Source of the DNA: Bacteroidota bacterium
GTDB taxonomy: Bacteria; Bacteroidota; Ignavibacteria; UBA10030
Direction of reading: 5' to 3'
DNA length: 62,797 nt
NCBI GenBank assembly: GCA_016928255.1
Contig: JAFGLB010000013.1
Coordinates: forward strand, 1 to 62,797
The position numbers were made by a program, and so were the translations under genes. Within the stretch, counting starts at the first letter, position 1. Every line of letters starts with the position of its first letter. Positions 5,988-58,496 of this stretch are shown here, piece after piece. The notes below the pieces were generated by a model. The model had not been told where the DNA came from and made no database searches. It saw only the letters and a list, made by a program, of their open reading frames with translations.

Positions 5988-7742
5988 ATGAGGCTCAATA
6001 TTACAATAACATGTGTATTAGCTGTGCTGTTGATAGCGGCGTTCGGGCAGGAATCCAATGCCCAGACTATAACCTCTAATCAGACCGGCACCAATAACGG
6101 CTTTTACTATTCATATTGGAAGGATGGTGGGTCAGCATCCATGACTTTGGGATCTAATGGCAATTATAGTGTCAATTGGAATTTGGGTAATTCCTATAAT
6201 TTTGTCGGCGGTAAAGGCTGGAGTACCGGATCATCATCCAGGGTAATAAGCTACAATGCCGGTGTCTGGTCACCGTCCGGTAATGCATATTTGTGTCTCT
6301 ATGGATGGACGAGAAACCCGCTTATAGAATATTATGTTGTTGATAGCTGGGGCAGCTGGAGGCCGCCTGGAGCATCGTCATCAGGCACCGTCAGCAGTGA
6401 CGGCGGTACATATGACTTATACCGGACCCAGAGAGTCAACCAACCTTCTATTGATGGCACTCAAACTTTTTATCAGTACTGGAGTGTCCGGACGTCGAAA
6501 AGAGGTACGGGAAGCAGCGCCAGTATCACTTTTAGCAATCACGTTAACGCATGGAAAAATAAAGGCTGGAATCTTGGGGGGCATGTTTACCAGATAATGG
6601 CAACAGAGGGATATCAAAGTAGCGGGAACTCTAACGTAACGGTGTGGGAAGGCGGCAGCAGCAGCTCAAGCAGCAGCAGCTCAAGCAGCAGTTCGTCATC
6701 AAGCAGTAGCAGCAGCGGCGGTTCCAACACGATTGTTGTAAGGGCCCGCGGAACAGCTGGAAGCGAAAGCATTCAGTTACGTGTGAATAACAGCACCATT
6801 GCTACATGGACATTAAGCACCAGTATGTCAAACTATACTGCGTCAACAAATTCAACCGGCGGTATTACGGTGAATTTCACTAACGATCAAAGCGGACGCG
6901 ACGTACAGATCGATTATATAACAGTAAACGGCAGTACACGTCAGGCTGAAAACCAGAGCACAAATACCGGTGTATGGCAGAATAACAAGTGCGGCGGTTC
7001 AAACAGTGAATGGCTGCATTGTAACGGGTATATCGGATTCGGCGATGTTTCCGGCAGCAGCAGCTCGAGCAGCAGTTCAAGCAGCTCATCGTCCAGCAGC
7101 AGCGGCGGTTCCAATACTATCGTTGTAAGGGCACGCGGAACAAGCGGCCAGGAACATATTAGGGTAACTGTCGGCGGGACTGAATACGGCTCATGGACTA
7201 TTGGTACCGGTTATGGGAATTGGTCTTGCACAACAAGTGCAACCGGCGGCATCAATGTTTATTTTGATAATGATGCCAGCGGACGCGATGTCCAGATTGA
7301 CTATATTACCGTAAACGGAAGCACTCGTCAGGCTGAAAACCAGGGAACAAATACCGGTGTATGGCAAAACAATAAATGCGGCGGTTCAAACAGTGAATGG
7401 CTGCATTGCAACGGATATATCGGATTTGGCAATGTTGCAAAATCCGGGAAAGAGGAAACAGCTCAACTGCTTATTCCGAAAGGTTATACTCTAGAACAGA
7501 ACTATCCAAATCCGTTCAATCCAACTTCAACTATCACGTTTACGATACCGGAGAATAATTATGTTTCGTTGAAGGTGTATAACTCCCTCGGGCAGGAAAT
7601 TACCGAACTGGCCGGGAGAGAGTATTCAGCCGGACGGCATTCAGTAATATTCAATGCCGCCAATCTGGCAAGCGGAGTGTATTACTACGCTATTAAAGCG
7701 GGAGAGTTTAACATGGTTGAAAAGATGATACTGCAGAAGTAA
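5988..7742 (+). CDS. Secreted GH11 endo-1,4-beta-xylanase with two tandem carbohydrate-binding modules and a T9SS-type C-terminal sorting domain
   Basis: A signal peptide is present. The GH11 hallmarks are [41 protein letters not shown] and [17 protein letters not shown]. Two poly-Ser linkers (about 6651-6723 and 7051-7108) each precede an approximately 110-aa module (IVVRARGT...[20 protein letters not shown]...[14 protein letters not shown]). These modules may be CBM36/60-like. The CTD ([14 protein letters not shown]...VYYYAIKAG) spans about 7491-7739. Confidence 0.9.
6651..7434 (+). repeat. Tandem in-frame duplication (period 387 nt) of the poly-Ser linker + CBM module
   Basis: 6891-7043 and 7278-7430 (153 nt each) align without gaps. 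By eye they are roughly 85-90% identical, and the differences fall mostly at third codon positions. Confidence 0.85.
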
Positions 7743-40557: not shown

Positions 40558-41820
40558 TTACATCTTATCGGTTGTCTTTTCTGCTTCACGATAAGTCTTA
40601 TATTTCCTTGCTGTTTCCATCACATTTGCAGGAGGCTGTTTTTTCGCCAATTCATCGCTCATGAATTGCATATAGGGATGGATATAAGAAAAGAACGTCT
40701 TATATGCACTGCAGAGGCAGTTGAGTCCCGGTTCACCGTCCGGAGAAATTTCAAACCTGTGCTTTGGACATCCGCCATGGCATGCAAACAGGTATTCACA
40801 TCTGGTGCAGTATGAAGGAAGGGTTAAAAGTTTATTCTGCCCGAACTTCATTTGCCGGTCTGATCGAGCCATATCTTTTAAGTGTGTATATTTGATATTG
40901 CCTAACCGGTATTCCGGGTAGACATAATGATCGCACGAATACAGATCGCCGTTATGTTCCAGCACCATAGCGCTGCCGCATGTTTTGTCGAACACGCAGA
41001 GGCCCGGAGATTCGCCTGCCCAGTTTGCCAGCGTTGTATCAAAAAGCTGGACAAAGATCCTGCCTACATCATTACGCACCCATTCATCAAAAATTGTGAT
41101 AAGAAATTTTCCGTAATTTTCAGGATTTACCGAGCACTCGGTAACAGAAGTATTCGTTTTACATTCAGGAGTTACCAGGCACAGTTCTTTATCTTTAGCA
41201 CTATGATTTATTCTTTCCACTAGAGGCATGAATTGCATATATCTGCTGCCGATCGTTTTTAAAAAACTATATACCTCAAGAGGGAAACCGGCATTATGCC
41301 GGCCTACGACAGTAAGCGTATTAAATTCGACCTGATGATTTTTCAACTGCTCGATTGTTTTCATCACATCATCGAAATAAGTTTTGCCGGTCCTGTCAAT
41401 ACGGTACTTATTGTGAATTTCCATCGGACCATCTATTGAAATACCGACCAAGAAATTATTATTATGAAAAAATTTGCACCAGTCCGTATTCAGCAGAATT
41501 CCATTGCTTTGGAATGTATTTTCTATGTTTTTCCCATTGCGGTATTTGTTTTGAAGGTTAACTACTTTTTTAAAAAAATCGATGCCCAGTAAAGCGGGCT
41601 CTCCGCCCTGCCAGCCGAATGTTACAGTCGGTGCATCTTGCGATTCGATATATTGCCGGATGAAATCTTCGAGTAATTCATCACTGATAATAAAATCGTG
41701 CACGCCGGGATAAAGCTTTTTCTTCTCAGTATAGTAGCAATAGGTGCAATCGAGATTGCAGATCGGGCCGTGCGGTTTGATTATCAGGTGAAAGTCTGTG
41801 GGATTTTTACGTGAATACAT
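40558..41820 (-). CDS. Radical SAM/SPASM enzyme, anaerobic sulfatase-maturating enzyme (anSME) family
   Basis: The CxxxCxxC motif occurs in the anSME-typical context (IKPHGPICNLDCTYCYY). C-terminal Cys clusters are present (CTRCEYLFACHGGCPKHR). Confidence 0.75.
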   Translation of the reverse strand: MYSRKNPTDFHLIIKPHGPICNLDCTYCYYTEKKKLYPGVHDFIISDELLEDFIRQYIESQDAPTVTFGWQGGEPALLGIDFFKKVVNLQNKYRNGKNIENTFQSNGILLNTDWCKFFHNNNFLVGISIDGPMEIHNKYRIDRTGKTYFDDVMKTIEQLKNHQVEFNTLTVVGRHNAGFPLEVYSFLKTIGSRYMQFMPLVERINHSAKDKELCLVTPECKTNTSVTECSVNPENYGKFLITIFDEWVRNDVGRIFVQLFDTTLANWAGESPGLCVFDKTCGSAMVLEHNGDLYSCDHYVYPEYRLGNIKYTHLKDMARSDRQMKFGQNKLLTLPSYCTRCEYLFACHGGCPKHRFEISPDGEPGLNCLCSAYKTFFSYIHPYMQFMSDELAKKQPPANVMETARKYKTYREAEKTTDKM

Positions 41821-47832: not shown

Positions 47833-48348
47833 TTCTTATCCTTATTTGTTGTTAAAAAACCTGGTGCTTATTGGATTTGCTTTCTCAATTGTGACTGCTG
47901 AATCCGGCTTTTTTCCCGGAATCTGATTTTAATAAAATTCCAGCAGATTTTCGGAATTTCCGACCTTGCTGCTGCAACTTATTGAAGCTCAAGCAGTATA
48001 ATAAGAATATAATAATTATTGATAAATAAATATCCAAAGTTTGAATATCTTTAAAAAAGGTAATTGCGTATAGGGCGGATATTTAATCCCGCCGGTAAAC
48101 TTAGAAAAATAGAAGCAATGAAAGCGGGGACTGTCTAACAGAAAGAGTGTGGAGTGAGAATATTGATGTAATTTTGGTATAACGGATTCTATTGAATATA
48201 CAGCGTTAATTATTTAATATAAGTTTGTTTATTATTATTCTTTCTTATATTTTTCATCTAGCGTCTTCACCCAAGGATTTATTTGCTTTTCTATTTTACT
48301 TAAAGGCATATAAATGCTTTATATTTACTGACTACAGGCCTATTAGTT

Positions 48349-51156
48349 ATGGACTTAATTTTATTGATACAGAACTTTTCTAGTATAAAATCTCTTAAGT
48401 TCAAATTTATTAGCATTTTATTAGTTATTCCCTTGTCTTTAATTTTATTTTCCTGTAATCAGGAAGAAAAAAACAAAGAATTACCAATAATTATTCTAGA
48501 TTCTACCAAAGCCGGTTTTGAAATCAGTATAAAAGAATGGCAAATACTGGGACCATTTCCTGATGATACTACACGATTTACTCAAAGTGATTTATCGACA
48601 GAAAATCCTGGTCTATTCTGCGATTATCTAAAAGATTTCAGATTATCGGAAGGATGCATCGAAGCTTCCGATATTGTTTCTATTAGTAAATCCAAGTCTA
48701 CTCATGTTGAACAACTAACAAATGAATTCACAAACAGATCTGTAAATGATACAAATAGATATTTTTATTTTTCAAATATTTTTAAAAGAAAGGAAAACAC
48801 AACATGCTATGCATTTTGTGAAATATATAGCCCCAAAGAACAAGATGTTTTGTTTGTGGCTGGCATGGATGATGGAATGATTGCCTGGTTAAATAATAAA
48901 GTAATTATTAGCAAAGCTAAAATGGGGGGTATATTGGAATATCAATATATGGTAGTGGCCCATTTAAACAAAGGAAAAAATTTGTTCTATGCAAAAGTAT
49001 ACAATATTCACTACGATTGGGGGATGTTTATAAATATATACAGCTTGACGGCTGCTAAGGATATATTAAGCAAAAACAATTCTTTAAAAATACTGGACAA
49101 TTGGATTTACCACACAGGAGATTCTCTTAACTTCAATATTGCTTTATTCGCCTCTCCATCTCAAAAATGCAAATTAATAATAAGCGACCATCTAAAGAAT
49201 ATCGTATTAATAAAAAATGAAAAAGAAAAGAGAATCTTAAACATTAATATGTTTCAATTTAAAAAGGGAGTATATTCAGCGAAAATATGTACGGACACAA
49301 TTAATTATGAACAATCATTTTATTACGGTAATGACGCTGACTCGTTATTACCGGGGTATATTTCTAAAAGTCGGCAATATAAAGATGAAAAAACAAAGAT
49401 AAATCTTAATGCTTTAATAATACGTTATAAACATTTAATAGATCCTGAAAACAAAAAATTAGAAGATCCTACATGGCAAAGTAAATTAGTTTTCGTAATT
49501 CAAGAACTTGAAGATGTGTTTAATGATTTAGAGCATAGAAAGGATGCTTTTAAACATAAAATAGGCAAACACCTTAGAGGATTTCTCAGCGAAATAGACA
49601 ATCAGGAGCAATTTTACAAAATTTACATACCTCATAAATATGGAAATGGATCTAAACCTCTTCCGGTTGTTGTTTTTGTCCCTTTTGAAACAGCTCCAAC
49701 CAGACCATTTCTGAAAAGTTTTCATGTTGCCAATCTTAATATTGAACAGGAACAGATTCAAGCTTCAGAAAAATATGGATGCATCCTGTTGTGGATAAAT
49801 TCTCGCGGCGGTTACTCACTGGAAAATCCAATTGAGACAACTGATTATTTTGAAGTACTTAAAGCCGTTCGAGAAGATTATAATATTGATGAAAACAGGA
49901 TCTATCTGACTGGAATGTGCAGCGGCGGACTGTCTTCATTAACATTGGGAATGCGTTATCCATCACTTTTTGCAGCAATCGGAATATTCTCTCCGATAAC
50001 CCATCTTAATAAAGTAGCAAAGTCTTTCCTTCCTATTCAAAATGAAACAGCAGATGTATGGTTCGAACAAAATACTCCATTAAGATTTACTGGGAATTAT
50101 TTAAACCTGCCTATCTACATTCTTCATGGAAATAAAAGTGAAGTACCTGAAAAACAATCCTTAGAATTTGTTGATAACTGCAGAAAGAATAATGTCAATC
50201 CATACTTCAAAATAACGTATGATGATAAAAATCCCGAGATCACAAGCACAGATTATACAGTATTTGATTTTTTCAAAGAAAAGCAAAGAAATTCCAATCC
50301 AAAAATTATCGATTTTTCGACTACACAGTTAAAATATAACCGGGCATACTGGGTCACAATCGAGCGGCTGATATCATTTTCTGAAAAAGCCAAAATACGT
50401 GCCGAATATGAACAAAATAACACAATAAAGGTCGAAACTAGAAATATAGCTAAAATCAGCATACAGCTTACGGATTTAGGAATAAACAGAACCAGACCGG
50501 TCAAAGTAATAGCGAATGGAAAGACTGTTTTTAATCAGCTAGCAAAAAATAATAGTATCTCTGTGGACATAACCCCTGAAACAAGCGACTATGATTTGTA
50601 TAAAAATCATGATATAGAAGGTCCTGTTATGCATGCATTTTCTAAAGGCTTTATACTTGCGGACTGCGAAAATTCGATCATTTCGGGAAAAGATAAAATG
50701 AGCGCTCCCTGCGATTCTATTTATTGTGCATGGAAAAGAGATTATTTTGTAGAAGGATGTCGTTATAAAAAGGCCGCGCAAATAAATCAAGAAGATATTA
50801 ATAAATTAAATTTAGTCTTAATAGGTAATCCTGAAAACAATAGTTTAATCAAGAATGTTATTACAAATATTCCGCTTAAGTTTTATGCTGATAGTATTGT
50901 TCTGTGCGGCAAAGTATACAAAGGCAGGGATCTTGGAATAGAAATGATTTACCCTAATCCTCTCAATAGAAGAAAATACATCGTGATGGTCGGATCCAAT
51001 AATTGGGAGAATTTTACTATACCGCAAACTAATTTATCTACGGAAGGTTGGTACGATTTTGTGATTTTTGAAAAAGCATCAGATCAATTGTGGAATATTA
51101 TAGATGTTGGATATTTTGATAATAACTGGCAACATTTAATATCTCTTGTAAATTAA
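48349..51156 (+). CDS. Large lipoprotein with a C-terminal alpha/beta-hydrolase (dienelactone-hydrolase/esterase-like) domain
   Basis: A lipobox is present (LILFS|C). Residues about 430-620 read PLPVVVFVPF...LLWINSRGG...RIYLTGMCSGGLSS...PIYILHGNKSE. GMCSGG fits the G-x-C-x-G-G nucleophile elbow of dienelactone hydrolases. The N-terminal half is unassigned. Confidence 0.5.
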   Translation: MDLILLIQNFSSIKSLKFKFISILLVIPLSLILFSCNQEEKNKELPIIILDSTKAGFEISIKEWQILGPFPDDTTRFTQSDLSTENPGLFCDYLKDFRLSEGCIEASDIVSISKSKSTHVEQLTNEFTNRSVNDTNRYFYFSNIFKRKENTTCYAFCEIYSPKEQDVLFVAGMDDGMIAWLNNKVIISKAKMGGILEYQYMVVAHLNKGKNLFYAKVYNIHYDWGMFINIYSLTAAKDILSKNNSLKILDNWIYHTGDSLNFNIALFASPSQKCKLIISDHLKNIVLIKNEKEKRILNINMFQFKKGVYSAKICTDTINYEQSFYYGNDADSLLPGYISKSRQYKDEKTKINLNALIIRYKHLIDPENKKLEDPTWQSKLVFVIQELEDVFNDLEHRKDAFKHKIGKHLRGFLSEIDNQEQFYKIYIPHKYGNGSKPLPVVVFVPFETAPTRPFLKSFHVANLNIEQEQIQASEKYGCILLWINSRGGYSLENPIETTDYFEVLKAVREDYNIDENRIYLTGMCSGGLSSLTLGMRYPSLFAAIGIFSPITHLNKVAKSFLPIQNETADVWFEQNTPLRFTGNYLNLPIYILHGNKSEVPEKQSLEFVDNCRKNNVNPYFKITYDDKNPEITSTDYTVFDFFKEKQRNSNPKIIDFSTTQLKYNRAYWVTIERLISFSEKAKIRAEYEQNNTIKVETRNIAKISIQLTDLGINRTRPVKVIANGKTVFNQLAKNNSISVDITPETSDYDLYKNHDIEGPVMHAFSKGFILADCENSIISGKDKMSAPCDSIYCAWKRDYFVEGCRYKKAAQINQEDINKLNLVLIGNPENNSLIKNVITNIPLKFYADSIVLCGKVYKGRDLGIEMIYPNPLNRRKYIVMVGSNNWENFTIPQTNLSTEGWYDFVIFEKASDQLWNIIDVGYFDNNWQHLISLVN

Positions 51157-51231
51157 CAATATACTGACGAATATAAAACATAGCTGTCACTTGTAATTAT
51201 CATTAAAACCTAGTTTTATAAAAATCACTTA

Positions 51232-53733
51232 TTAATATTCTTCCCTTTCGCTTAACGATTTGTATTCATTGGCTTTCATAATATTCCCCTGCTTTGAGTA
51301 TAACTCTGATAGATGTTCATAAATATTTGAAAGCTTGATGTTCATGGAGCAATAACTCAAAAATCCATCGGGAATTAAATAATTATTTAATATCGATCTT
51401 TGATCTTTACAAGTAAAATTGTACATAGCACTTGTTTTACTTGCATGGAAAGAATGTTGAATTAATGAAGCCGAAATAACATTCTTATAATATTTTATTG
51501 CCTCACTAACTTGATTATGTTGTTCATAATATTCGCCTAATCGTAATGCTGGATATAAATCAGCTTGATCAAGCAGAGCTGCCTTCTGATAACAACGCAG
51601 CATTTCATTCGTATCTGTAAATTGATAAAGATCGCCGAGATAAAGCCATGGGCGCGGAAGATTAGGTAAAGTGCTAGTTACAGATTTCAATAATATTTTA
51701 GATTTTTCATATTCTTTGCAAAACAAATACAATTTTGCAAGTCGAGCGCCTGCTAATGGATCATTTTTCAAAGTATATATATTTTCTAAGCTATCTATAC
51801 TGTGACGTACTAATATGACTGATTTGTCCGGGAATCGCTTTTGCAAATCACAATAAAATGGCGAATCCAATATGCTGGGCTGCTGCTGAATGGCCTGTCC
51901 GTATTCTATAAAAGCAGAATCTATGTTTCCGACATACTCATAAAACATTCCTAAACCAATATGATAAACAGGAATACTGTGATTCAATTGTATGGCATAT
52001 TGAAAGTAATATTCTGATTTATTAATAGCTTTATTGAATAAATATAACCACCCAAGATTATAGTAAAACTCATCATCCGATGGATTAATCATAACAGCTT
52101 GTCTATAATAATTAATACTCGCTTCAATATGCCTGACTTCTGTTTCATTAAATACATAATTATGTGCTAAGAATGTATCTACATTAAATATTCTATCAAT
52201 CAATCTTTCCTCTGTCAATCCATCGGAAGATAAATAATAGGCATTATTCGGAGCCAACCGAATTGCGGATTCTATATTTTCTTTTGCTCGGATATAATTA
52301 TTATGGTTTATACTTTCAATATAATCGAGATAATAACTTTCTGCTTTTTCCTTTTTTAAAGAATTTATTGCTATAATTAAAAATATTAAGCCGAACAATA
52401 AAAAAGGGATTATGATTTTTAATTTTGAATAAAGGGTAATATGTCTGGGTTCTTTTTTCCCATAAGGTGATTGTGTGTTATGAGCAAATATGAACCAGAT
52501 AAGAAGATGTGCCCCTTTATTATACAAAATTGAAGAATAACTTAAATCCCGAACAAGAATTGCCGCGAAAGCGCTCATCATTAAAATCACAGAAGCTTTT
52601 TCATTCCATTCTTTTAAGTATTTTATTTTACGATGAGAAACATAAAAGAACGAAATAATTAAAAAACAATATGCAGCAATCCCTGGCAATCCTTTTTCAA
52701 CAGCAAGCTGTAAAAAGAAATTAAAAATCCTTCCTGCAAATGGAGCATTGTCGTTTTGATCCTTATACTTTCCATATTCGATGGCAAAATTATTTGATCC
52801 GATGCCAGTCAGTGGATGTTCTTTTATCATCATAAAGCCTGTCTTCCATAAATTTTCTCTTCCTTCATAACTCCGGATCTGTGATGTTGTACGGAACATA
52901 GAAGCTGTTGATAAAACAGAATCGCGAACCGGTGAAATTAAAAATATTATTGCTAATGGAAGAATAATTGCTGCATTAAAAAACAATACTATTTTAAGCG
53001 ATGATAACTTATATATAATAAATAATATACTTGCCACGACAAAAAAAGCTGCAATTGCTATGTACATTCCTCTGAAACAGGAGATGACTGGAATTACTAA
53101 AATTATTATTGGCAACAATAAATATAAAGTTGAAACAAAAGGCTGTTCTTTTTTATACTTAATAAAAAACAACATGATAGAAAAGGGAAGACATACGAGA
53201 TACAAAGTGCTCCATTCTGCTGTAGGAGTACCAATTGGAGCACCAAAAGAAAACGCATTCTTAAAATCATTGATATTTGATAAACCGGCAGACAACATTT
53301 GGGAATAGTTAGAAGAAAAGCCTATAATTCCATCAATGAAAAGAAATACACCTAGCACAGTAATAAAAATATAAATAGCCCTTATTTGATATTCATGTTT
53401 TAGATTAAATTTAATCCAGTAATAGAATAGAATAAAGTAGCTGATATCGGCAATACTATAATAACTATTTTCTCTATAAATTGATGTTAAATAACTTATT
53501 ACTTCTACAACAGCGATCATTGCTATTGCAATATCAAACAAAGTAAACTGATATGTATCTGACGCTAAATCAACATCTAGGATGTGTTTTGACGAGAAAA
53601 GAAAGAATACAACAAGTAAGAATAGACCTGAATTAAAAAATCCGTAAATCGTTAGGAATATTATTAAACAAGTTATTACAATAAAGGAATTGTCAAAAGC
53701 TTTCCTAAGTTCTTCCAATCTCCCTGAAAACAC
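51232..53733 (-). CDS. O-antigen-ligase-like (Wzy_C) polytopic membrane protein fused to C-terminal TPR repeats
   Basis: 833 aa with about 12 or more TM segments. The Wzy_C-type loop is HPLTGIGSNNFAIEYGKY. The C-terminal region of about 380 aa has TPR-like repeats (AIRLAPNNAYY..., YYRQAVMINPSDDEFYYNLGWLY, YFQYAIQLNHSIPVYHIGLGMFY...). Confidence 0.65.
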   Translation of the reverse strand: MFSGRLEELRKAFDNSFIVITCLIIFLTIYGFFNSGLFLLVVFFLFSSKHILDVDLASDTYQFTLFDIAIAMIAVVEVISYLTSIYRENSYYSIADISYFILFYYWIKFNLKHEYQIRAIYIFITVLGVFLFIDGIIGFSSNYSQMLSAGLSNINDFKNAFSFGAPIGTPTAEWSTLYLVCLPFSIMLFFIKYKKEQPFVSTLYLLLPIIILVIPVISCFRGMYIAIAAFFVVASILFIIYKLSSLKIVLFFNAAIILPLAIIFLISPVRDSVLSTASMFRTTSQIRSYEGRENLWKTGFMMIKEHPLTGIGSNNFAIEYGKYKDQNDNAPFAGRIFNFFLQLAVEKGLPGIAAYCFLIISFFYVSHRKIKYLKEWNEKASVILMMSAFAAILVRDLSYSSILYNKGAHLLIWFIFAHNTQSPYGKKEPRHITLYSKLKIIIPFLLFGLIFLIIAINSLKKEKAESYYLDYIESINHNNYIRAKENIESAIRLAPNNAYYLSSDGLTEERLIDRIFNVDTFLAHNYVFNETEVRHIEASINYYRQAVMINPSDDEFYYNLGWLYLFNKAINKSEYYFQYAIQLNHSIPVYHIGLGMFYEYVGNIDSAFIEYGQAIQQQPSILDSPFYCDLQKRFPDKSVILVRHSIDSLENIYTLKNDPLAGARLAKLYLFCKEYEKSKILLKSVTSTLPNLPRPWLYLGDLYQFTDTNEMLRCYQKAALLDQADLYPALRLGEYYEQHNQVSEAIKYYKNVISASLIQHSFHASKTSAMYNFTCKDQRSILNNYLIPDGFLSYCSMNIKLSNIYEHLSELYSKQGNIMKANEYKSLSEREEY

Positions 53734-53739
53734 TCCTAT

Positions 53740-54450
53740 TTATCTCCCCATCATTAACTGCATATTTTCGGATAAAAGACCAACCGCAAATTGGAACCCA
53801 ACGCCCCAAAACCAAACAGATGTAACTAAAACAGCAGATTTCCATTTTTTAAGCTGACAAATTACAGACATTCCAATTGTAAGTACGACTACGTACCATA
53901 CAGAAAATACGTTGAAGTTGTTTAAGAAATTAAAAAGAAGAACATTCTGCGATTTGTCAGCAAGGAAAAAGTCTAACCCTATTATTGTATGCAAATCGGT
54001 TAAGTTGCTTACTGCATCTACACCCTTGATGAGTATGAGCAATACATTAATGATTCCCATGAGTGCCAAAATAAATTCTGAATAAACAACAACCGCATAA
54101 AGAGTTTTAAAGTTGTTTTTTTGTGCATCAAAAAGTATTGCACCTAAATATAAAAACGAAGAAATGAACAACCATTTTAGCAGGAAGGTTATTGGTATAA
54201 GAAGACGCATAAACATTCTATATCTTGACGTTGTAGATGCAACTTTTTGTGCCTGTTCTTCGCTCATTTTGACTGTAAATGTTTCCTCCATTATTTTTTG
54301 GATAAATGGAAGCATAAAATACCCACATATGAGACTCACAGCACAAATGATTAAAAATGCCACAGGCCATTTAGGCGTTTTCTTTATATTTTCAAAAACA
54401 TCTGTTGGAGTTGCAAAAATGTTGATAATGTTAGATAACGCTACAGCCAT
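53740..54450 (-). CDS. Yip1-domain integral membrane protein
   Basis: 236 aa. The N-terminus is Yip1-like (IFATPTDVFENIKKTPKWPVAFLIICAV) and 5 TM segments follow. It overlaps the upstream ABC gene by 10 nt. Confidence 0.6.
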   Translation of the reverse strand: MAVALSNIINIFATPTDVFENIKKTPKWPVAFLIICAVSLICGYFMLPFIQKIMEETFTVKMSEEQAQKVASTTSRYRMFMRLLIPITFLLKWLFISSFLYLGAILFDAQKNNFKTLYAVVVYSEFILALMGIINVLLILIKGVDAVSNLTDLHTIIGLDFFLADKSQNVLLFNFLNNFNVFSVWYVVVLTIGMSVICQLKKWKSAVLVTSVWFWGVGFQFAVGLLSENMQLMMGR

Positions 54451-55229
54451 GACAATTTCCCTTTTTGTTTATCTTCGCTTTTATTCGCAACAACATCAAT
54501 AAATATTTCTTCTAACGATTGATACGTTTCTTGCGTAATCTCATTTTTAATCTTGCTGCGTATATCCTCTGTTTTGGATTGAAAAACTAATTTGCCTTTA
54601 TTAATTATTGCAATTTCGTCACACAGTTTTTCTATTGTATCAAGAACGTGCGAAGTAATTAATACTGTTGTGCCATTTTGCACCATTTGTTTTAAAACAT
54701 CTTTAATTCTTTTGGCTGAGATAGGGTCAATGCCTTCTAACGGTTCGTCTAATATTAATAACTTTGGTTTGTGTATAATTGCTGCGGCAAGAGAGACTTT
54801 TTTCTTCATTCCAGCAGAATATTTTTCTATCCATTCATTTTGTTTCTCGCTCAATTCAAGAAATTCGATAAGCTCTTGTGCGCGTTTTTTTATTTCGTTT
54901 TTCTCAATATCATACATAGAACCGGCAAATTCCAAATATTCCTTAACCGTGAGCTTTTCGAAGTAAGTTGGGCGCTCTAATACGAAACCTACTTGTCGTT
55001 TATATTCATAGTCTCCATCTTTTATTTCTTGGTTACGAAAATATACTTTCCCTGTATCTTTTTTGACCAACCGAGCAATTATATTAATTGTTGTTGACTT
55101 TCCAGCACCGTTAGGGCCTAAAAAACCGAAAATACTATTTTCACTTACCGATAAGTTGAGGTCATCTAAAGCTAATTTTTTAGCAAATAAATATTTTTTA
55201 GAAATATCTTCAAGTGTGAGTACGTTCAT
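54441..55229 (-). CDS. ABC transporter ATP-binding protein (ABC-2/immunity-type)
   Basis: Walker A is GPNGAGKST, the signature is YSAGMKKKVSLA, Walker B is LLILDEP and the H-loop is TSHV. An ATGA overlap joins it to the upstream membrane gene. Confidence 0.9.
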   Translation of the reverse strand: MNVLTLEDISKKYLFAKKLALDDLNLSVSENSIFGFLGPNGAGKSTTINIIARLVKKDTGKVYFRNQEIKDGDYEYKRQVGFVLERPTYFEKLTVKEYLEFAGSMYDIEKNEIKKRAQELIEFLELSEKQNEWIEKYSAGMKKKVSLAAAIIHKPKLLILDEPLEGIDPISAKRIKDVLKQMVQNGTTVLITSHVLDTIEKLCDEIAIINKGKLVFQSKTEDIRSKIKNEITQETYQSLEEIFIDVVANKSEDKQKGKLSWL

Positions 55230-55879
55230 GTTAACTCGATTATCTTATAAATATTTTTAGATAGTTGTTTTGCTGAAACTGGAATTGAAATGTAACGCCA
55301 TAAAAATAGCATGATAAGTATGTATGGATAACAATACACGACAGTATTAAAAATAATTTTGATAACGAAATATGGAATTGAAAATAATATAATAGCAAAG
55401 ATGCTAATGACTATATTTATAAATGCATATTTTAAAGAATTATTTTTTGTAGGACGAGAAGATGTTATATTGCGAAGCATAATAAATGGAAAAACAATTG
55501 TTAAGCCATATGTAAATGCTAAGAATACTTTATAGGTCGTAAGTTGAAACATGAAAAACACAATAAACGAAAACAGTAACAAACAGAATATTGTAACAAA
55601 GGCTGCTGCGAGATTTTTCGCAATTACCAAAGATTGGAAGTGAATAGGGAATAGTTGATATTTCATAAATTCATTATTAGTAATGTCAAAAAGACTATTA
55701 ATTTTATTTTCAAATATGCAAAAGAACAAAATGAATAGAGGTATTACAGTTTGCACTGCAATACTTTGATATAATAATAATAATTTCATGGAGGCAACTA
55801 TTAAGCCTAAGAATAAAGGGGCGACTATAATCTGTCTATACTTTATGAGAAGGATTATTTGAAAAATAATCATTTTCAT
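55226..55879 (-). CDS. Polytopic membrane protein (putative ABC-2 permease component)
   Basis: The product is very hydrophobic with about 6 TM segments. The longest ORF reaches 55930. The ATG at 55879 (MKMIIFQ...) overlaps the upstream stop as TAATG and is the likelier start. Confidence 0.55.
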   Translation of the reverse strand: MKMIIFQIILLIKYRQIIVAPLFLGLIVASMKLLLLYQSIAVQTVIPLFILFFCIFENKINSLFDITNNEFMKYQLFPIHFQSLVIAKNLAAAFVTIFCLLLFSFIVFFMFQLTTYKVFLAFTYGLTIVFPFIMLRNITSSRPTKNNSLKYAFINIVISIFAIILFSIPYFVIKIIFNTVVYCYPYILIMLFLWRYISIPVSAKQLSKNIYKIIELT

Positions 55880-56619
55880 TAAATATATTTTTTTGACACT
55901 ACGTATCCAGAATAAAAAGCCAAAAAACATAAAAGTAATAATAAGCCAAGATATGCAAAAGACAGAAAAACATTATTTTCTTTAGCCGCCAGTAAAAACA
56001 TTATCGGCAAATTCACTACTGGAATATGTAAGCTATAATATTGGGCATTCAACCACATTATTGGGAACCAACTTAAGGAAAGAAATGCAGAAATCTTAGC
56101 ATTTGTGGTTACGGATAATTGCTCTCTAAAAAAAAATATTGCTGCGAACACAATTTCAAAGAAAATCAAGCATAAGATTACAGCTAATGTGAAAATAATA
56201 ACTAATAAGTCAGAGAAGCCTAATAATTTAATTACAATTATTAATGGCACTATACCGTTAAAATATAGTAATATTCGAAAGTCGACAAATGAAATTTTAA
56301 AAAAAAGGAAAAACATCTGGAAAGGTGAATATGGGAAACGATTGATCTTAAAAAAAGAAATACTGAAATGATTGCGATACCTATAATCCAATATTACAAA
56401 ATTTAAGAATATTAAACTAGTAAAGAACATCATCCAAGACTTATAAAACTCTTGCCCTAAAACCATCTTTTGAAAAACGAACCGACCATAGCTAATTCCA
56501 AATACAACAAGACAACCAACACCAATCACCACACTATATCGAAGATTCCATTGCAAAAAACGACGTAAAAGCATTCTATTTAGATCGAACAATATTTTCA
56601 TTCCCTTAGAAGTTCCCAT
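55879..56619 (-). CDS. Polytopic membrane protein (putative ABC-2 permease / immunity component)
   Basis: 246 aa with about 6 TM segments. It is the first gene after the precursor-peptide hairpin. No family was recognised. Confidence 0.55.
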   Translation of the reverse strand: MGTSKGMKILFDLNRMLLRRFLQWNLRYSVVIGVGCLVVFGISYGRFVFQKMVLGQEFYKSWMMFFTSLIFLNFVILDYRYRNHFSISFFKINRFPYSPFQMFFLFFKISFVDFRILLYFNGIVPLIIVIKLLGFSDLLVIIFTLAVILCLIFFEIVFAAIFFFREQLSVTTNAKISAFLSLSWFPIMWLNAQYYSLHIPVVNLPIMFLLAAKENNVFLSFAYLGLLLLLCFLAFYSGYVVSKKYI

Positions 56620-56658
56620 ATATTCTTAATAATAGATACTTATCCAATAAATATATTG

Positions 56659-56700
56659 GGGCTGCTTAAAAACATTCTTTTTTAAGCAGCCCTTTTTTTT
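56659..56700. terminator. Strong hairpin (14-bp stem) flanked by A8/T8, directly downstream of the precursor-peptide gene; probable partial terminator or mRNA stabiliser
   Basis: ggctgcttaaaaa(56659-56672)-cattct-tttttaagcagcc(56679-56692), with T8 on the plus side. On the coding (minus) strand the stem is followed only by CAAUAUAUUUAUU. Confidence 0.5.
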
Positions 56701-56706
56701 AGATCA

Positions 56707-56979
56707 TCAGCAAGCTTCAGATTTCCAACCATTATATAATGCACCAATTGCGCATCCAGCAAGCCCTCCGTAAAACCCAAAATAAGAACCAGCACAGCCG
56801 CCCATGAATCCTCCATATGCTATATCACCTAAGCAAGCCCACCCATCCCAACCACCAACAGATTGCATCATCTGGGTGTCAGTCATTTTTACAGAGCTAT
56901 TTTGTGTGCTAGGCATGGCAGAAACAGTCACTACCAAAACCAAAGATAGAACTAGAATACACGAAATTACCTTTTTCAT
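56707..56979 (-). CDS. Gly/Cys-rich bacteriocin-like precursor peptide carrying a Sec-type signal and an internal double-glycine site
   Basis: The 90-aa product is MKKVISCILVLSLVLVVTVSA|MPSTQNSSVKMTDTQMMQSVGG|WDGWACLGDIAYGGFMGGCAGSYFGFYGGLAGCAIGALYNGWKSEAC. A perfect SD (AAGGAGG) ends 4 nt before the ATG. The 47-aa core has 13 Gly in GxxxG arrays and 4 Cys, resembling Blp/lactobin-type class II bacteriocins. Confidence 0.7.
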   Translation of the reverse strand: MKKVISCILVLSLVLVVTVSAMPSTQNSSVKMTDTQMMQSVGGWDGWACLGDIAYGGFMGGCAGSYFGFYGGLAGCAIGALYNGWKSEAC

Positions 56980-57061
56980 AAATCCTCCTTAAAGGTATGT
57001 TTTTTTGTTTAGTTATTAAAGTTCCCGCCCACTGCGGCCTGTCTGTCAACAATAAACTCCA

Positions 57062-57097
57062 ATACTTCACTTTGGCGGCCGAGCCAAAGTGAAGTAT
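57062..57097. promoter_or_regulatory. Perfect 15-bp inverted repeat (6-nt spacer) between the C39 gene and the precursor gene
   Basis: atacttcactttggc-ggccga-gccaaagtgaagtat was verified base by base. No U-tract follows on the coding strand. A TTGACA hexamer lies about 15 nt downstream on the minus strand. Confidence 0.5.
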
Positions 57098-57137
57098 CTT
57101 CATTCATAATCAACAAACCAGCAGGCAAGGATTATTT

Positions 57138-57677
57138 TTACTTGCTTTCTTTAAACACCAAGGTTTCACCTTTCCATATTTCGCACAATTCTTTTTTCCC
57201 GATCTTCATTCTTCCCATCGCTGGATTACGATAATAAAGAGTATCTTCTCTTACGCTATCAGCAACTATAAAGTGATTATTATTAACATAGAGGATAGAA
57301 GGAAATGAGGAGCACGTAAAATCATTAAACGTAAACCTCCAGCCTTCCGCTTTTAGGCCGTTTTTCTCCGCAATCTTTTTTAAGTCCAGCATAGAAGTGC
57401 CTTTATCAGTAAGCGTTATGCCAGTTTCAATTTTCTTCAGCGATATAGGAATATCGTAATAATCAAATATCATTTTTAATGCACACGGCCCGCATTCATT
57501 TGTGTTCATTTGGAAAACAACTCCATAATTACCGAGATATTCTCCAGGCGTCTTCCAAAATGCATGTTGATCATTTTTTCCTGAGTTATGGGATTCTAAT
57601 CCAAAAACAATAAAAGCAACAACAATCAATACCATTACAATTAAACCAAAGAGAGCATATTTTTTCTTTTTATTCAT
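57138..57677 (-). CDS. Stand-alone, N-terminally membrane-anchored C39-family (bacteriocin-processing) cysteine peptidase domain protein
   Basis: 179 aa. An MNKKKK segment plus a TM helix precedes the domain. The C39 motifs are QMNTNECGPCALKMIFDYYDIP (Gln/Cys) and NNNHFIVADSV (His), with Asn at His+16 where Asp is usual. No ABC transporter is fused. Confidence 0.75.
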   Translation of the reverse strand: MNKKKKYALFGLIVMVLIVVAFIVFGLESHNSGKNDQHAFWKTPGEYLGNYGVVFQMNTNECGPCALKMIFDYYDIPISLKKIETGITLTDKGTSMLDLKKIAEKNGLKAEGWRFTFNDFTCSSFPSILYVNNNHFIVADSVREDTLYYRNPAMGRMKIGKKELCEIWKGETLVFKESK

Positions 57678-58243
57678 AAATGTTTTATTCCCGCATCTTG
57701 ATTGTTGTTTTTAAATTGTAAAAAGGCTTTTTGCAATTGAACCACACTTTGAGTGCTTACTATAAATCTAACCATCTGAAAATCCTTATTGAGGAAATAT
57801 ATCACTGGAATTGGTAGAACATGAAAAGCATCTTTTGCTTTATTCTTTAAGTCTAAATACACAGGAAAGACAACATTCATCTCTTTGATGAAATCAATTG
57901 TTTCTTCTTTACCATCGATAGAAATACAGAATATATCGATAGAATCATCGATTAATGGCTTCAACAAGAGTAAGTTTTTCATTCCATCTTTACAATGAGA
58001 ACAACCTGTGGAAAAGAATAGAATGATCGTTTTCTTGTTAATAAGGGATCTTATCGCAACATCTTTTCCATCTAAAGTCTGAACTTCTGCAGGCGGTACA
58101 GTATCGCCAATGGCAAGCGGTTGAACAATAAAATTATTCTGTATATAAAGATATCCAAAACAACCGGCAATTATTATAAATGCAATTATGGACAACGCGA
58201 TTGCTTTACGTGAATGAAGTGGTATCCTATCCGTTTTACCCAT
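57674..58243 (-). CDS. Membrane-anchored TlpA/ResA-like thioredoxin-fold protein (CxxC)
   Basis: 189 aa with an N-terminal TM anchor. The motif FFSTGCSHCKDG sits in an AhpC/TSA-TlpA-like context. An ATGA overlap joins it to the C39 gene. Confidence 0.75.
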   Translation of the reverse strand: MGKTDRIPLHSRKAIALSIIAFIIIAGCFGYLYIQNNFIVQPLAIGDTVPPAEVQTLDGKDVAIRSLINKKTIILFFSTGCSHCKDGMKNLLLLKPLIDDSIDIFCISIDGKEETIDFIKEMNVVFPVYLDLKNKAKDAFHVLPIPVIYFLNKDFQMVRFIVSTQSVVQLQKAFLQFKNNNQDAGIKHL

Positions 58244-58496
58244 TACTATGCCTAGAATGATTTACATTTCTTCTGATAAGAAAAACAATTCAAATAGGCT
58301 TGGCGCTAATATACTTTTACATAATGCGTTAGCTTGATTTATATTAAATAATCTTCACAATAAAGTCAAATCTTTTAAATAAATAAAATGAATTATGATA
58401 AAGTCAGTTATTGTGGCAACTTTTTGAACGACAGAGTGTGTATGTTTTGCAGATCGTTCAAAGTCTATAGAACAAACCGCGGATACCCTGTATATT

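Follow-up and report, generated by a model that had tools for sequence, protein, structure and literature searches.

C39 double-glycine peptidases are known chiefly as the cytoplasmic domains of bacteriocin exporters. To our knowledge, the few that are periplasmic (FapD and NapP) have no defined substrates. Peptidase-containing ABC exporters (PCATs) process class II microcins and two-peptide class IIb bacteriocins, such as MccV/CvaB, lactococcin G, Blp and the lactobin A/cerein 7B type, in which a double-glycine (GG) leader precedes a small core. In these systems the C39 peptidase is located in the cytoplasm, as the exporter's N-terminal domain. Other bacteriocin-like peptides depend on Sec, among them those of the enterocin P type and the Bacillus subtilis SDP peptide, which derives from SdpC through further extracytoplasmic processing and against which YknWXYZ gives protection. 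Bacteroidetocins (class IIf) are encoded by a four-gene set comprising a 5-TM protein, a GG peptide, a thiol oxidoreductase and a PCAT, where the PCAT is needed and the leader is 15-16 aa long and carries no Sec signal (PMC6671954). FapD, from the Pseudomonas Fap amyloid system, has been described as an active periplasmic C39 peptidase (PMC5557850), while for NapP, encoded on the nap island of Neisseria, periplasmic cleavage of GG peptides has been proposed (PMC11798529). These two, NapP only indirectly, were all that was found in the literature on standalone, membrane-anchored or periplasmic C39 peptidases.

The precursor gene described here lies in a 62,797-nt stretch of Bacteroidota DNA (the window), at positions 56707-56979, and encodes 90 aa from an ATG start. 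An earlier note made from the sequence had given exactly these limits, to which the minus strand, common to all features located below, has now been added. The AAGGAGG Shine-Dalgarno sequence that it reported is present at 56984-56990, 4 nt 5' of the ATG, and comparable sequences precede the homologous precursors. The translation consists of a signal (MKKVISCILVLSLVLVVTVSA), a leader (MPSTQNSSVKMTDTQMMQSVGG) and a core (WDGWACLGDIAYGGFMGGCAGSYFGFYGGLAGCAIGALYNGWKSEAC), and no second open reading frame (ORF) of this type occurs elsewhere in the window. When homologues of the peptide were sought with a word index, it matched only itself; a phmmer search against 1.84 billion representatives returned 17 other proteins at E<=1e-3, with a bipartite leader in all 15 short relatives fetched. 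In 80 metagenome loci anchored on C39 homologues, about 60 precursors of the same layout were found downstream of the C39 gene, in which MKK is followed by a long hydrophobic stretch, then an AXA-like site and finally a GG leader, and about 60 related loci keep the combination of thioredoxin, C39 and precursor. Loci collected through C39 are biased towards a C39 link; six reciprocal checks starting from the peptide placed a C39 gene directly upstream in five. Taken together, the phmmer relatives, the precursors next to C39, this reciprocal link and the lack of another such ORF in the window confirm, at the level of sequence, that the 90-residue gene is real and more than a chance reading. The family is widespread, bacteriocin-like and, apparently, undescribed. 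At two loci (L005 and L006), a leaderless 48-aa peptide occupies the precursor position beside C39, an arrangement that the model favoured below does not explain.

Residues 1-21 (56917-56979) have the appearance of a Sec-type signal, a heuristic pattern check having found MKK, 18 uncharged hydrophobic residues and a putative signal peptidase I site, VSA, before M22. Low-confidence AlphaFold2 (AF2) modelling places a helix at residues 2-20. Among the roughly 60 family members, the n-region carries a charge of +1 to +3 (mostly +2), small residues recur at -3 and -1, and the hydrophobic region is uncharged and long, typically around 20 residues in the window's subgroup. Given this length (18-22 residues), the region may stay in place as an anchor and not be removed as a signal. 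The following residues, 22-43 (56851-56916), form the GG leader MPSTQNSSVKMTDTQMMQSVGG, which ends in QSVGG. In leaders of this kind, the cleavage site is GG (or GA/AG), positions -4, -7 and -12 are hydrophobic and position -8 is acidic; the window peptide has GG43, M at -7 and M at -12, with Q at -8 and S at -4. The hydrophobic residue had already been described as displaced from its usual position, and V does stand at -3. With S-4 and Q-8 the leader is weaker than a canonical one, which counts against the favoured model. The family pattern is L/M(-12), E/D/Q(-8), M/L(-7), I/V/L/A/S(-4) and GG, many of the approximately 60 precursors carrying the canonical L(-12)..E(-8)M(-7)..I(-4)xGG, and by this comparison the S at -4 is a quirk of the window's subgroup, the wider family having the canonical I, V or L there. 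Mean identity among family precursors is 51% in the leader and 27% in the core, with conservation stopping at the GG.

The proposal in the earlier note that a Sec n-h-c signal and a genuine GG leader coexist in one precursor is therefore supported by a pattern that recurs throughout the family. Its further idea of dual targeting holds insofar as both signals appear to be present, and fails in its frame, since serial use is most likely and not a choice between alternative routes. Unlike a leader cleaved in the cytoplasm by a PCAT, this one is not the extreme N-terminus, the 21-residue n-h-c signal coming first. As the operon lacks a peptidase-containing ABC exporter and a standalone anchored C39 peptidase lies beside a similarly anchored thioredoxin, the two signals would act in series, most likely with Sec export first and periplasmic GG cleavage afterwards.

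The 47-aa core (residues 44-90; 56710-56850) is a hydrophobic peptide rich in GxxxG motifs and cysteines, as had been claimed, and a recount agrees on 13 Gly and on Cys at core positions 6, 19, 33 and 47. Seven overlapping GxxxG pairs are present (13-17, 14-18, 17-21, 21-25, 25-29, 28-32 and 32-36). The suggested match to Blp, lactobin A and cerein 7B was not borne out, the resemblance being one of composition only. No bacteriocin family in NCBIfam matched the full precursor at E<=0.1 or the pro-peptide and core at E<=10; this covers the TIGR03949- and TIGR01847-type models, to which alignment had been suggested and both of which we take to be within the release. A Pfam scan of precursor and core likewise gave no bacteriocin family and no Bacteriocin_IIc. 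The cysteines delimit arms of 13 and 14 residues in the window core, while across the family Cys counts are nearly always even and arm lengths are equal in 9 of 21 four-Cys cores (combined p ~0.006). AF2 places helices at residues 44-63 and 67-82 in a helix-turn-helix arrangement, weakly (pLDDT ~50, and 56 for the whole precursor), so that the model is usable for secondary structure only. The core is predicted to be a disulfide-stapled helical hairpin. Family cores are hypervariable, and cannot be aligned even where the neighbouring C39 proteins are 89% identical, the leaders then being 77% identical.

The genes are arranged, tightly packed or overlapping, in the order thioredoxin-fold protein, C39, precursor, memA, memB, ABC ATPase, Yip1/YknW-like protein and Wzy_C-TPR protein. 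The first encodes a membrane-anchored thiol:disulfide oxidoreductase of 189 aa (57674-58243; Pfam AhpC-TSA 6e-13, Thioredoxin_8), with an NCBIfam match to ResA (7.5e-17) that is below cutoff, and its stop and the start of C39 share 4 nt. Thioredoxins of the ResA/TlpA type work outside the cytoplasm. Its CSHC active site is, to judge from the motif, a DsbA-like CxHC, which occurs in 28 of 41 distinct C39-adjacent thioredoxin homologues (CPHC in 14, CSHC in 8 and other CxHC in 6). The C39 gene (57138-57677) encodes a standalone peptidase of 179 aa that begins with MNKKKK and a 21-aa transmembrane anchor and matches Pfam Peptidase_C39 at 6e-30 (104 bits, cutoff 22), its best solved relatives being LahT150 (6mpz, 1e-15) and PCAT1 (4ry2). 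Among 18 homologues Cys62, His135 and Asp140 do not vary and Gln56 hardly does, by which the peptidase is catalytically intact, and it is encoded 158 nt upstream of the precursor. Since the N-terminal KKKK is followed by a transmembrane anchor, the C39 domain is predicted, by analogy under the positive-inside rule, to lie outside the cytoplasm; in 16 homologues with a detected hydrophobic segment, the charge preceding it is mostly +3 or +4 (range +1 to +4). Weak NCBIfam matches to FapD (NF058616) and FilB (NF050078), at 2.4e-9 each, amount to 36.8 and 37 bits where the cutoffs lie at 330 and 475, and do not make it a member of either; no Fap genes surround it, and we infer only an extracytoplasmic location in common with them. 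A search of a collection of genome contigs with C39 matched only distant Pseudobutyrivibrio PCATs. No PCAT was found in the operon or among the larger window ORFs examined.

Downstream of the precursor lie memA (55879-56619; 246 aa), a polytopic membrane protein matching nothing in Pfam or NCBIfam and a candidate transmembrane subunit of the ABC system, and memB (55226-55930), also polytopic. The memB ORF has 234 aa, and the 215-aa version held in the database suggests that the true start is near 55873; its AF2 model, built on a 3-sequence alignment (pLDDT 52), is too poor to use. No similarity is detectable between memA and memB. Homologues of memA occur at the same position in loci L007, L010, L011 and L087, and in L004 and L090 memA and memB form one fused protein of about 525 aa. 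The ABC transporter ATPase (54441-55229; 262 aa) is of the DrrA/ABC-2 type (Pfam ABC_tran 8e-31), with NCBIfam matches under cutoff to drrA (4e-67) and to lantibiotic-protection ABC proteins (5.5e-52). It is followed by a Yip1/YknW-like membrane protein of 236 aa (53740-54450; Pfam Yip1 3e-17; NCBIfam YknW_fam 3e-23, 82 bits, under the cutoff of 110), for which sequence comparison gave no solved relative. This is the most widely kept partner after thioredoxin and C39, present in nearly all loci that reach far enough. The last gene encodes an 833-aa membrane protein combining an O-antigen-ligase-like Wzy_C domain (7e-17 in Pfam) with TPR repeats (51232-53733), and only the closest relatives (the P0003 contig, L004, L005 and L026) retain this gene. 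The ABC ATPase and memA/memB accompany only Gly/Ala-rich hydrophobic cores, while in loci with Cys-rich CCLDLW cores their place is taken by a secreted protein of about 170 aa.

The 5' UTR of the precursor contains a conserved structured RNA of about 117 nt (57015-57132), with four stacked helices, 35 bp and strong covariation. RNAalifold detected compensatory changes in 27 of the 35 pairs, and pairing holds in 92.6% of cells, against 39-49% for slid partners and with none of 500 shuffles reaching that level; the minimum free energy fold has z = -6.9. A covariance model (CM R1) scores 102.9 bits at the window locus and finds one match per locus in 57 loci, in addition to all four independent loci (61 in total). 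Rfam 15 gave only noise (E>=0.12) on window positions 56600-57300, and no Rfam family reached the gathering score on seven loci. Another motif that can lie close to C39A genes, the ldcC RNA, whose reported context is polyamine-related decarboxylase genes (PMC5737381), is an unlikely identity for the element, as that context differs and the Rfam scans returned no family. Intergenic "ORFs" with apparent protein conservation (e.g. ...NEKEALGWPL...) were rejected as coding, because L005 has a frame-breaking indel and the conservation tracks base pairing. The element is thus a candidate for a new cis-regulatory class tied to these precursor genes, and may sense a ligand or a protein. A GC-rich hairpin detected by a terminator scan at 56659-56692, 15 nt past the precursor stop, is terminator/attenuator-like on both strands, and a comparable hairpin lies 3' of the peptide gene at L005.

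When compared to the PCAT-processed class II microcins and class IIb bacteriocins, the locus has in common the -4/-7/-12 GG leader, the Cys/His/Asp of C39, a small Gly-rich GxxxG core, disulfides (predicted here), a leader that is conserved while the core behind it is hypervariable, and nearby immunity-type membrane proteins. It differs in the Sec-type signal that precedes the GG leader, in a C39 peptidase that is standalone, anchored and predicted to face the periplasm rather than forming an exporter domain, in having no PCAT, MFP or TolC, and in the lack of a match to curated bacteriocin HMMs. With enterocin P and SDP it would share Sec export and, in the case of SDP, a second processing step, a disulfide and protection by a Yip1-family (YknW) protein and an ABC transporter; those peptides have neither GG leader nor C39 and come from single-membrane hosts, whereas the present host has two membranes, as a T9SS substrate is encoded. 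Bacteroidetocins likewise come from two-membrane hosts of the FCB group, and their clusters, too, encode a GG-leader peptide containing 2-4 Cys, a thiol oxidoreductase dedicated to the cluster and a polytopic accessory membrane protein, although the cores are unrelated (PMC6671954). Here the PCAT of their gene set is absent and the leader region extends over 43 aa with the Sec signal, and the ABC ATPase, Yip1-like protein and RNA element have not been described for them. FapD and NapP resemble the present C39 in being detached from an ABC transporter and in acting, or being proposed to act, in the periplasm, and Nap peptides are also bacteriocin-like with a GG motif (PMC5557850; PMC11798529). 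In contrast to the locus described here, the FapD substrate has no canonical GG leader (PMC5557850), both systems have a FapF-type outer-membrane channel and no thioredoxin partner, and Sec signals have not been described for Nap peptides, for which a holin-like inner-membrane route has been speculated (PMC11798529).

We consider it moderately probable that the precursor is a Sec-exported, periplasm-matured, membrane-active bacteriocin-like peptide which is cleaved by C39 and then oxidised, with immunity provided by the ABC and Yip1-like proteins. In this model, the n-h-c segment would direct the precursor to Sec, leaving it across or anchored in the inner membrane, probably with a signal peptidase I cut after VSA21. 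The outward-facing, anchored C39 would then cut the 22-residue pro-region after G43. The co-translated, anchored CxHC thioredoxin-fold protein would oxidise the four cysteines, most likely to C6-C47 and C19-C33, and these disulfides would hold the 47-residue glycine-zipper core as a stapled hairpin of antiparallel helices. The most likely role of the ABC ATPase, its two putative membrane subunits and the Yip1/YknW-like protein is to shield the producer or to clear the peptide from the producer's membrane, and the 5'-UTR RNA, together with the hairpin after the stop codon, probably sets the level or stability of the precursor mRNA.

Several other readings have to be weighed against this model. 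The same maturation route could yield a product that is not an inter-bacterial toxin, acting instead on the producer itself or as a structural element (Nap-like autolysis or death, or a fibre, amyloid or pilus subunit as for FapD and FilB) or as a signal. We regard this as rather unlikely, though it draws on the weak FapD and FilB matches of C39, on Nap peptides whose GG motifs and standalone C39 go with autolysis and not with the killing of competitors (PMC11798529), on the ability of Gly/Ala-rich hydrophobic peptides to self-assemble and on the operon itself, in which no outer-membrane export component is visible, a point that weighs against the favoured model too. The same operon, however, contains neither a FapF/NapF-like channel nor a neighbouring sensor kinase or regulator, the immunity-type genes co-vary with the type of core, and core sequences are hypervariable to the point of being non-homologous in close relatives, which is typical of conflict systems and not of structural subunits. 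It is also conceivable, if improbable, that Sec processing alone matters, the GG being incidental and C39 acting elsewhere, which would leave a 69-residue M22-C90 product or a small membrane-anchored protein. The deviations of the window leader at -4 and -8, the leaderless peptide adjoining C39 in L005 and L006 and the fact that the real substrate of FapD is still unknown (PMC5557850) are compatible with that reading. It does not readily account for a GG whose distance from the N-terminus is almost constant, for the canonical -12/-8/-7/-4 pattern before it in many divergent precursors, for sequence conservation that ends exactly there, or for a C39 gene adjoining the precursor in essentially every locus, peptide-first ones included.

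A classical cytoplasmic GG-leader bacteriocin, with its peptidase-ABC exporter encoded elsewhere and the hydrophobic stretch as an unusual leader extension, appears very improbable. The GG leader and GxxxG core do resemble those of class IIb bacteriocins and class II microcins, and an ABC ATPase is present within the operon; that ATPase, however, belongs to the DrrA/ABC-2 type with separate membrane subunits and no fusion to C39 or an exporter TMD, the C39 peptidase stands alone behind a transmembrane anchor, MKK, the hydrophobic stretch and the AXA-like site are kept family-wide, and the operon and the larger ORFs examined yielded no PCAT. A structural glycine-zipper outer-membrane lipoprotein of the Gly-zipper/17-kDa-antigen type is scarcely credible. 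Pfam Gly-zipper_Omp (PF13488) is indeed the top match of the core (E=0.15), yet its 12.4 bits fall far under the 25-bit cutoff, and neither the tight C39/ABC linkage nor the hypervariable cores fit such a protein. The form of this scenario raised in the earlier note, a lipoprotein unlinked to C39 or ABC genes, is excluded by that linkage. A lipoprotein reading of Cys7 was also rejected, for there is no lipobox, the residue lying where the hydrophobic stretch begins and not being conserved in homologues.

On balance, the Sec-exported, C39-matured peptide remains the preferred reading. We see about even chances that Sec, an anchored periplasmic C39, a DsbA-like oxidase and a controlling 5'-UTR RNA, which may sense a ligand or a protein, together make up a widespread maturation pathway of two-membrane bacteria that uncouples cleavage from export and of which no description was found. 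The pairing of an outward-facing C39 with an obvious Sec and GG substrate makes the question of what periplasmic C39 peptidases cut directly testable, and these would, if the reading is correct, be their first clear enzyme-substrate pairs. Searches for GG peptides that are conditioned on a GG leader at the N-terminus, or on a PCAT in the neighbourhood, will miss the whole class. The family would then also represent a large reservoir of disulfide-stapled hairpin peptides, in which dozens of unrelated hairpin cores behind one leader form a library useful for peptide discovery and engineering.

The precursor gene lies on the minus strand at positions 56707-56979 and encodes 90 residues from an ATG start, with an AAGGAGG Shine-Dalgarno (SD) sequence (56984-56990, minus strand) placed 4 nt before it, which confirms the reading frame and SD proposed in the earlier note. 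Its product comprises a signal, MKKVISCILVLSLVLVVTVSA (residues 1-21), a leader, MPSTQNSSVKMTDTQMMQSVGG (residues 22-43), and a core, WDGWACLGDIAYGGFMGGCAGSYFGFYGGLAGCAIGALYNGWKSEAC (residues 44-90). When recounted, the core has 13 Gly, with Cys at positions 6, 19, 33 and 47, and the leader carries V at -3 relative to the double-glycine (GG) site, all as that note had counted; the GxxxG pairs of the core, which overlap, number seven, and S occupies -4, a deviation flagged there that is accounted for by the window's subgroup, which has A or S at this position. An ORF search found no second ORF of this design elsewhere in the window. The peptide had been placed with Blp/lactobin A/cerein 7B-type bacteriocins, an assignment that was dropped because NCBIfam and Pfam scans gave no match to any bacteriocin family.

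The gene is the third of a tightly packed minus-strand operon. Upstream of it are genes for a ResA/TlpA-like thioredoxin-fold protein (57674-58243) with AhpC-TSA and Thioredoxin_8 matches, an N-terminal anchor and a CSHC active site, and for a standalone Peptidase_C39 protein of 179 aa (57138-57677; Pfam 6e-30); the stop of the former overlaps the start of the latter by 4 nt, and a spacer of 158 nt separates the C39 gene from the precursor. Downstream follow two polytopic membrane proteins to which no family is assigned, memA (55879-56619) and memB (55226-55930), an ABC ATPase of the DrrA/ABC-2 type (54441-55229), a Yip1/YknW-like membrane protein (53740-54450) and, as the last gene, an 833-aa Wzy_C (O-antigen-ligase-like) and TPR protein (51232-53733), all on the minus strand. 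The G+C content is ~31% (range 30-34%) over ~48000-58300 as against ~41% in the remaining window, which suggests an acquired island; this stretch spans the entire operon and a convergent 935-aa esterase/S9-like gene (48349-51156), and no integrase was seen. The window also encodes GH95 and GH97 enzymes, a Reg_prop/Y_Y_Y hybrid kinase and a GH11 xylanase (5988-7742) with CBM60 and a Por_Secre_tail (T9SS) sorting domain, the last of which indicates that the host is an FCB-group bacterium with two membranes. Strong SD sequences, as used in this operon, are unusual for Bacteroidia. Some 15 kb from the operon, a 420-aa radical SAM and SPASM-domain protein of peptide-maturase-type architecture is encoded (40558-41820, minus strand).

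A word-indexed homologue search with the peptide gave no relatives, while an exhaustive phmmer search of 1.84 billion representatives gave 17 other proteins at E<=1e-3. The 15 short matches that were fetched have in common an N-terminal part of 42-43 residues, followed by unrelated Gly/Ala-rich cores. C39 homologues occupy the same operon in two related loci (L004, L005) and on the contig of the homologue P0003, and among 80 loci from a metagenome scan started with C39 a small ORF almost always lies 3' of the C39 gene. Since these loci had been gathered via C39, a reciprocal test was run from the peptide, and C39 was found directly upstream in five of six matches (P0020, P0025, P0028, P0032, P0034), the sixth being flanked by ABC and Yip1 genes on a truncated contig. 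Throughout the family the n-region is of MKK type (net charge +1 to +3, mostly +2) and is followed by a long uncharged hydrophobic stretch, typically of ~20 residues in the window's subgroup, with small residues at -3/-1 (VSA, ASA, VFA, GFA and similar). After a spacer come leaders such as VQLNSDEMAQISGG or AQLVDQQMTQIVGG, with L/M at -12, E/D/Q at -8, M/L at -7, I/V/L/A at -4 and GG, sometimes AG, at the end; this is the canonical double-glycine pattern. In two loci (L005 8765-8911, L006 5266-5412) the precursor is replaced, after the RNA element of this family and an SD, by a 48-aa Gly/Ala/Cys peptide, MSAGCWWAVAGMG...ISGCGG (MSAGCWW...GCGG), which has neither signal nor GG leader. The adjoining C39 protein (P0011) has an aberrant C-terminus, and these loci may reflect either decay of the system or a leaderless variant.

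The closest solved relatives of the C39 protein are GG-proteases, namely LahT150 (6mpz, 1e-15), PCAT1 and ComA. Among 18 homologues Cys62, His135 and Asp140 never vary and Gln56 hardly does, and in view of these residues the protein is predicted to be active. It is not fused to an ABC exporter; its N-terminus, MNKKKK, precedes a hydrophobic segment of 21 residues. Such a segment (15-24 residues) was detected in 16 homologues, in which net charge is mostly +3/+4 before it (range +1 to +4) and ~0 to +2 after it (range -1 to +3), an asymmetry which, by the positive-inside rule, predicts a catalytic domain facing outward from the cytoplasm. FapD and FilB are periplasmic standalone C39 proteins, and the NCBIfam matches of the C39 protein to them, although weak and far below cutoffs, are consistent with extracytoplasmic placement. 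The thioredoxin-fold protein is likewise anchored at its N-terminus, and the ResA/TlpA/DsbE family works outside the cytoplasm. Its counterparts carry CPHC (14), CSHC (8) or another CxHC (6) active site in 28 of 41 distinct sequences. As CPHC is the DsbA motif, we infer an oxidising, disulfide-forming role for these partners. In two loci a MauE/DoxX membrane protein follows the Yip1 gene (L048 7083-7547, L090 7472-7975). MauE is the partner of thioredoxin-like MauD in the methylamine dehydrogenase system, and by analogy this protein may serve to re-oxidise the thioredoxin-like protein as its redox partner in the membrane.

Sequence conservation ends at the GG, with a mean pairwise identity of 51% for leaders versus 27% for cores, the latter value being inflated by composition. 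In the peptide homologue P0020, the neighbouring C39 (P0003) is 89% and the leader 77% identical to those of the window, and the core, with 36 aa and 2 Cys against 47 aa and 4 Cys, cannot be aligned. Several types of core occur: Gly/Ala-rich hydrophobic ones, as in the window, whose first Cys lies no more than ~6 residues from the N-terminus and whose last Cys is close to the C-terminus; compact four-Cys ones; and Cys-rich ones with 4-8 Cys and a conserved CC(L/I)(D/N)(L/F)W...C motif (L016, L020, L031, L033, L035, L038, L044, L047, L052-L066, L085), which have the leader, C39, thioredoxin and RNA common to the family. Cys counts are almost always even (2, 4, 6 or 8). Nine of the 21 four-Cys cores have two Cys-Cys arms equal within one residue (C-x6-C...C-x6-C, C-x10-C...C-x10-C), with arms of 13 and 14 in the window; the combined p is ~0.006, some of these cores being related to one another. 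Equal arms of ~7, 11 or 14 residues are expected from two nested disulfides across an antiparallel helical hairpin. An AF2 model of the precursor, with helices at 2-20 (signal), 34-41 (leader), 44-63 and 67-82 and a pLDDT of 56, lends weak backing to this predicted fold. In L051, L070, L075, L079 and on the P0028 contig, a single C39 gene is followed by two to four precursor genes in tandem whose cores differ; such arrays could specify several peptides, possibly as two-peptide systems.

Conserved-looking "ORFs" in the spacer between C39 and precursor were rejected as coding because L005 carries a frame-breaking indel. The spacer holds a structured RNA of 117 nt (57015-57132, minus strand; covariance model 102.9 bits, MFE fold z = -6.9), which nhmmer detected in 42 of 62 spacers. 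The fold obtained from 35 distinct aligned copies is a single long, irregular hairpin with four helices and 35 bp, in which compensatory changes affect 27 pairs according to RNAalifold and 29 by a separate pair count. Paired cells make up 92.6% of the alignment versus 39-49% when partners are slid, and the observed values were reached in none of 500 shuffles. That the structure belongs to the sense strand is indicated by its many G-U pairs and by scores of ~100 bits there versus 25 bits for the antisense strand. With the covariance model, one copy per locus was found in 57 sources and no further copy in the window or 556 kb of flanks. Without exception the RNA lies shortly 5' of the precursor, even with ORFs in between (L009, L030), and it was present in all four loci found independently via the peptide. 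No family in Rfam 15 matches it, and it is a candidate for a new cis-regulatory RNA class tied to precursor genes. Since the SD lies outside the structure and no terminator follows, a stability, processing or protein-/ligand-binding leader is favoured over a classical attenuator. A GC-rich hairpin 15 nt past the precursor stop (56659-56692), terminator-like on both strands with flanking A and T runs, has a comparable counterpart after the peptide gene in L005 and may act as an attenuator, increasing precursor transcript relative to downstream transcript.

Together, the logic of the sequence, topology rules and conservation across the family point to a maturation route in which residues 1-21 would direct Sec translocation or anchoring, with signal peptidase I probably cutting after VSA, the outward-facing C39 would cleave after G43, and the CxHC thioredoxin would oxidise the core to C6-C47 and C19-C33. 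This route is considered the most likely one, and reasonably probable. The interpretation in the earlier note was half right: both signals are present and the linkage to C39 and ABC genes stands, while the family assignment and the view of the signals as alternative targets do not. [quoted passage not shown] Sec processing alone, with an incidental GG, is improbable, being contradicted by the conserved position and pattern of the leader. The Gly-zipper lipoprotein without C39 or ABC linkage, which the earlier note had envisaged, is scarcely credible: a lipobox is absent, the HMM scores 12.4 bits versus a cutoff of 25, and the C39 and ABC genes are linked.

It is possible, if rather unlikely, that the same route yields an autolysis, fibre or signal peptide, as in Nap- or Fap-like systems. 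For FapD, a periplasmic C39, activity has been shown by experiment and the substrate is not known (PMC5557850); the paper on it was the only one on standalone, periplasmic or membrane-anchored C39 proteins returned by a full-text literature search of incomplete coverage. The standalone C39 NapP of Neisseria is a proposed periplasmic peptidase for GG peptides, in a system with a FapF-like channel where inner-membrane passage via a holin is speculative (PMC11798529). The window system resembles GG-leader bacteriocins and class II microcins in its working, but lacks their defining cytoplasmic N-terminal leader cut by a PCAT. Bacteroidetocins, from a related phylum, also combine a GG peptide containing Cys with a dedicated thiol oxidoreductase, but have 15-aa leaders and require a PCAT (PMC6671954). 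No bipartite Sec and GG leader was described in the literature searched, an absence of evidence only given its incomplete coverage.

Following maturation by Sec, C39 and thioredoxin, the stapled glycine-zipper hairpin may, by analogy, act on membranes, a toxin function that is judged less likely than the route itself. The genes around the precursor bear on this reading. The thioredoxin and C39 genes lie side by side in almost all loci extending far enough upstream, the precursor is 3' of C39 in nearly all, and Yip1/YknW-like proteins lie downstream in nearly all loci of sufficient reach. YknW is part of B. subtilis YknWXYZ, which protects against the SDP toxin. The ABC ATPase, which resembles lantibiotic-protection ATPases (NCBIfam, below cutoff), occurs with memA/memB only alongside Gly/Ala-rich hydrophobic cores; memA and memB are fused into one ~525-aa protein in L004 and L090, and the Wzy_C-TPR protein is confined to the closest relatives (L004, L005, L026 and the P0003 contig). 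Loci with cores of the CC(L/I)(D/N)(L/F)W type lack ABC and memAB and encode instead a secreted ~170-aa protein (e.g., L048 5871-6380, L063 5972-6493), which may be a periplasmic immunity protein. This tracking of accessory genes with core type has the look of toxin-immunity pairs, and ABC, memAB and Yip1 would, by analogy, give self-protection. It is from the periplasm that class II microcins gain access to their targets (PMC12219008); a peptide matured in the producer's own periplasm would therefore demand strong immunity, and the conserved accessory genes fit such a need.
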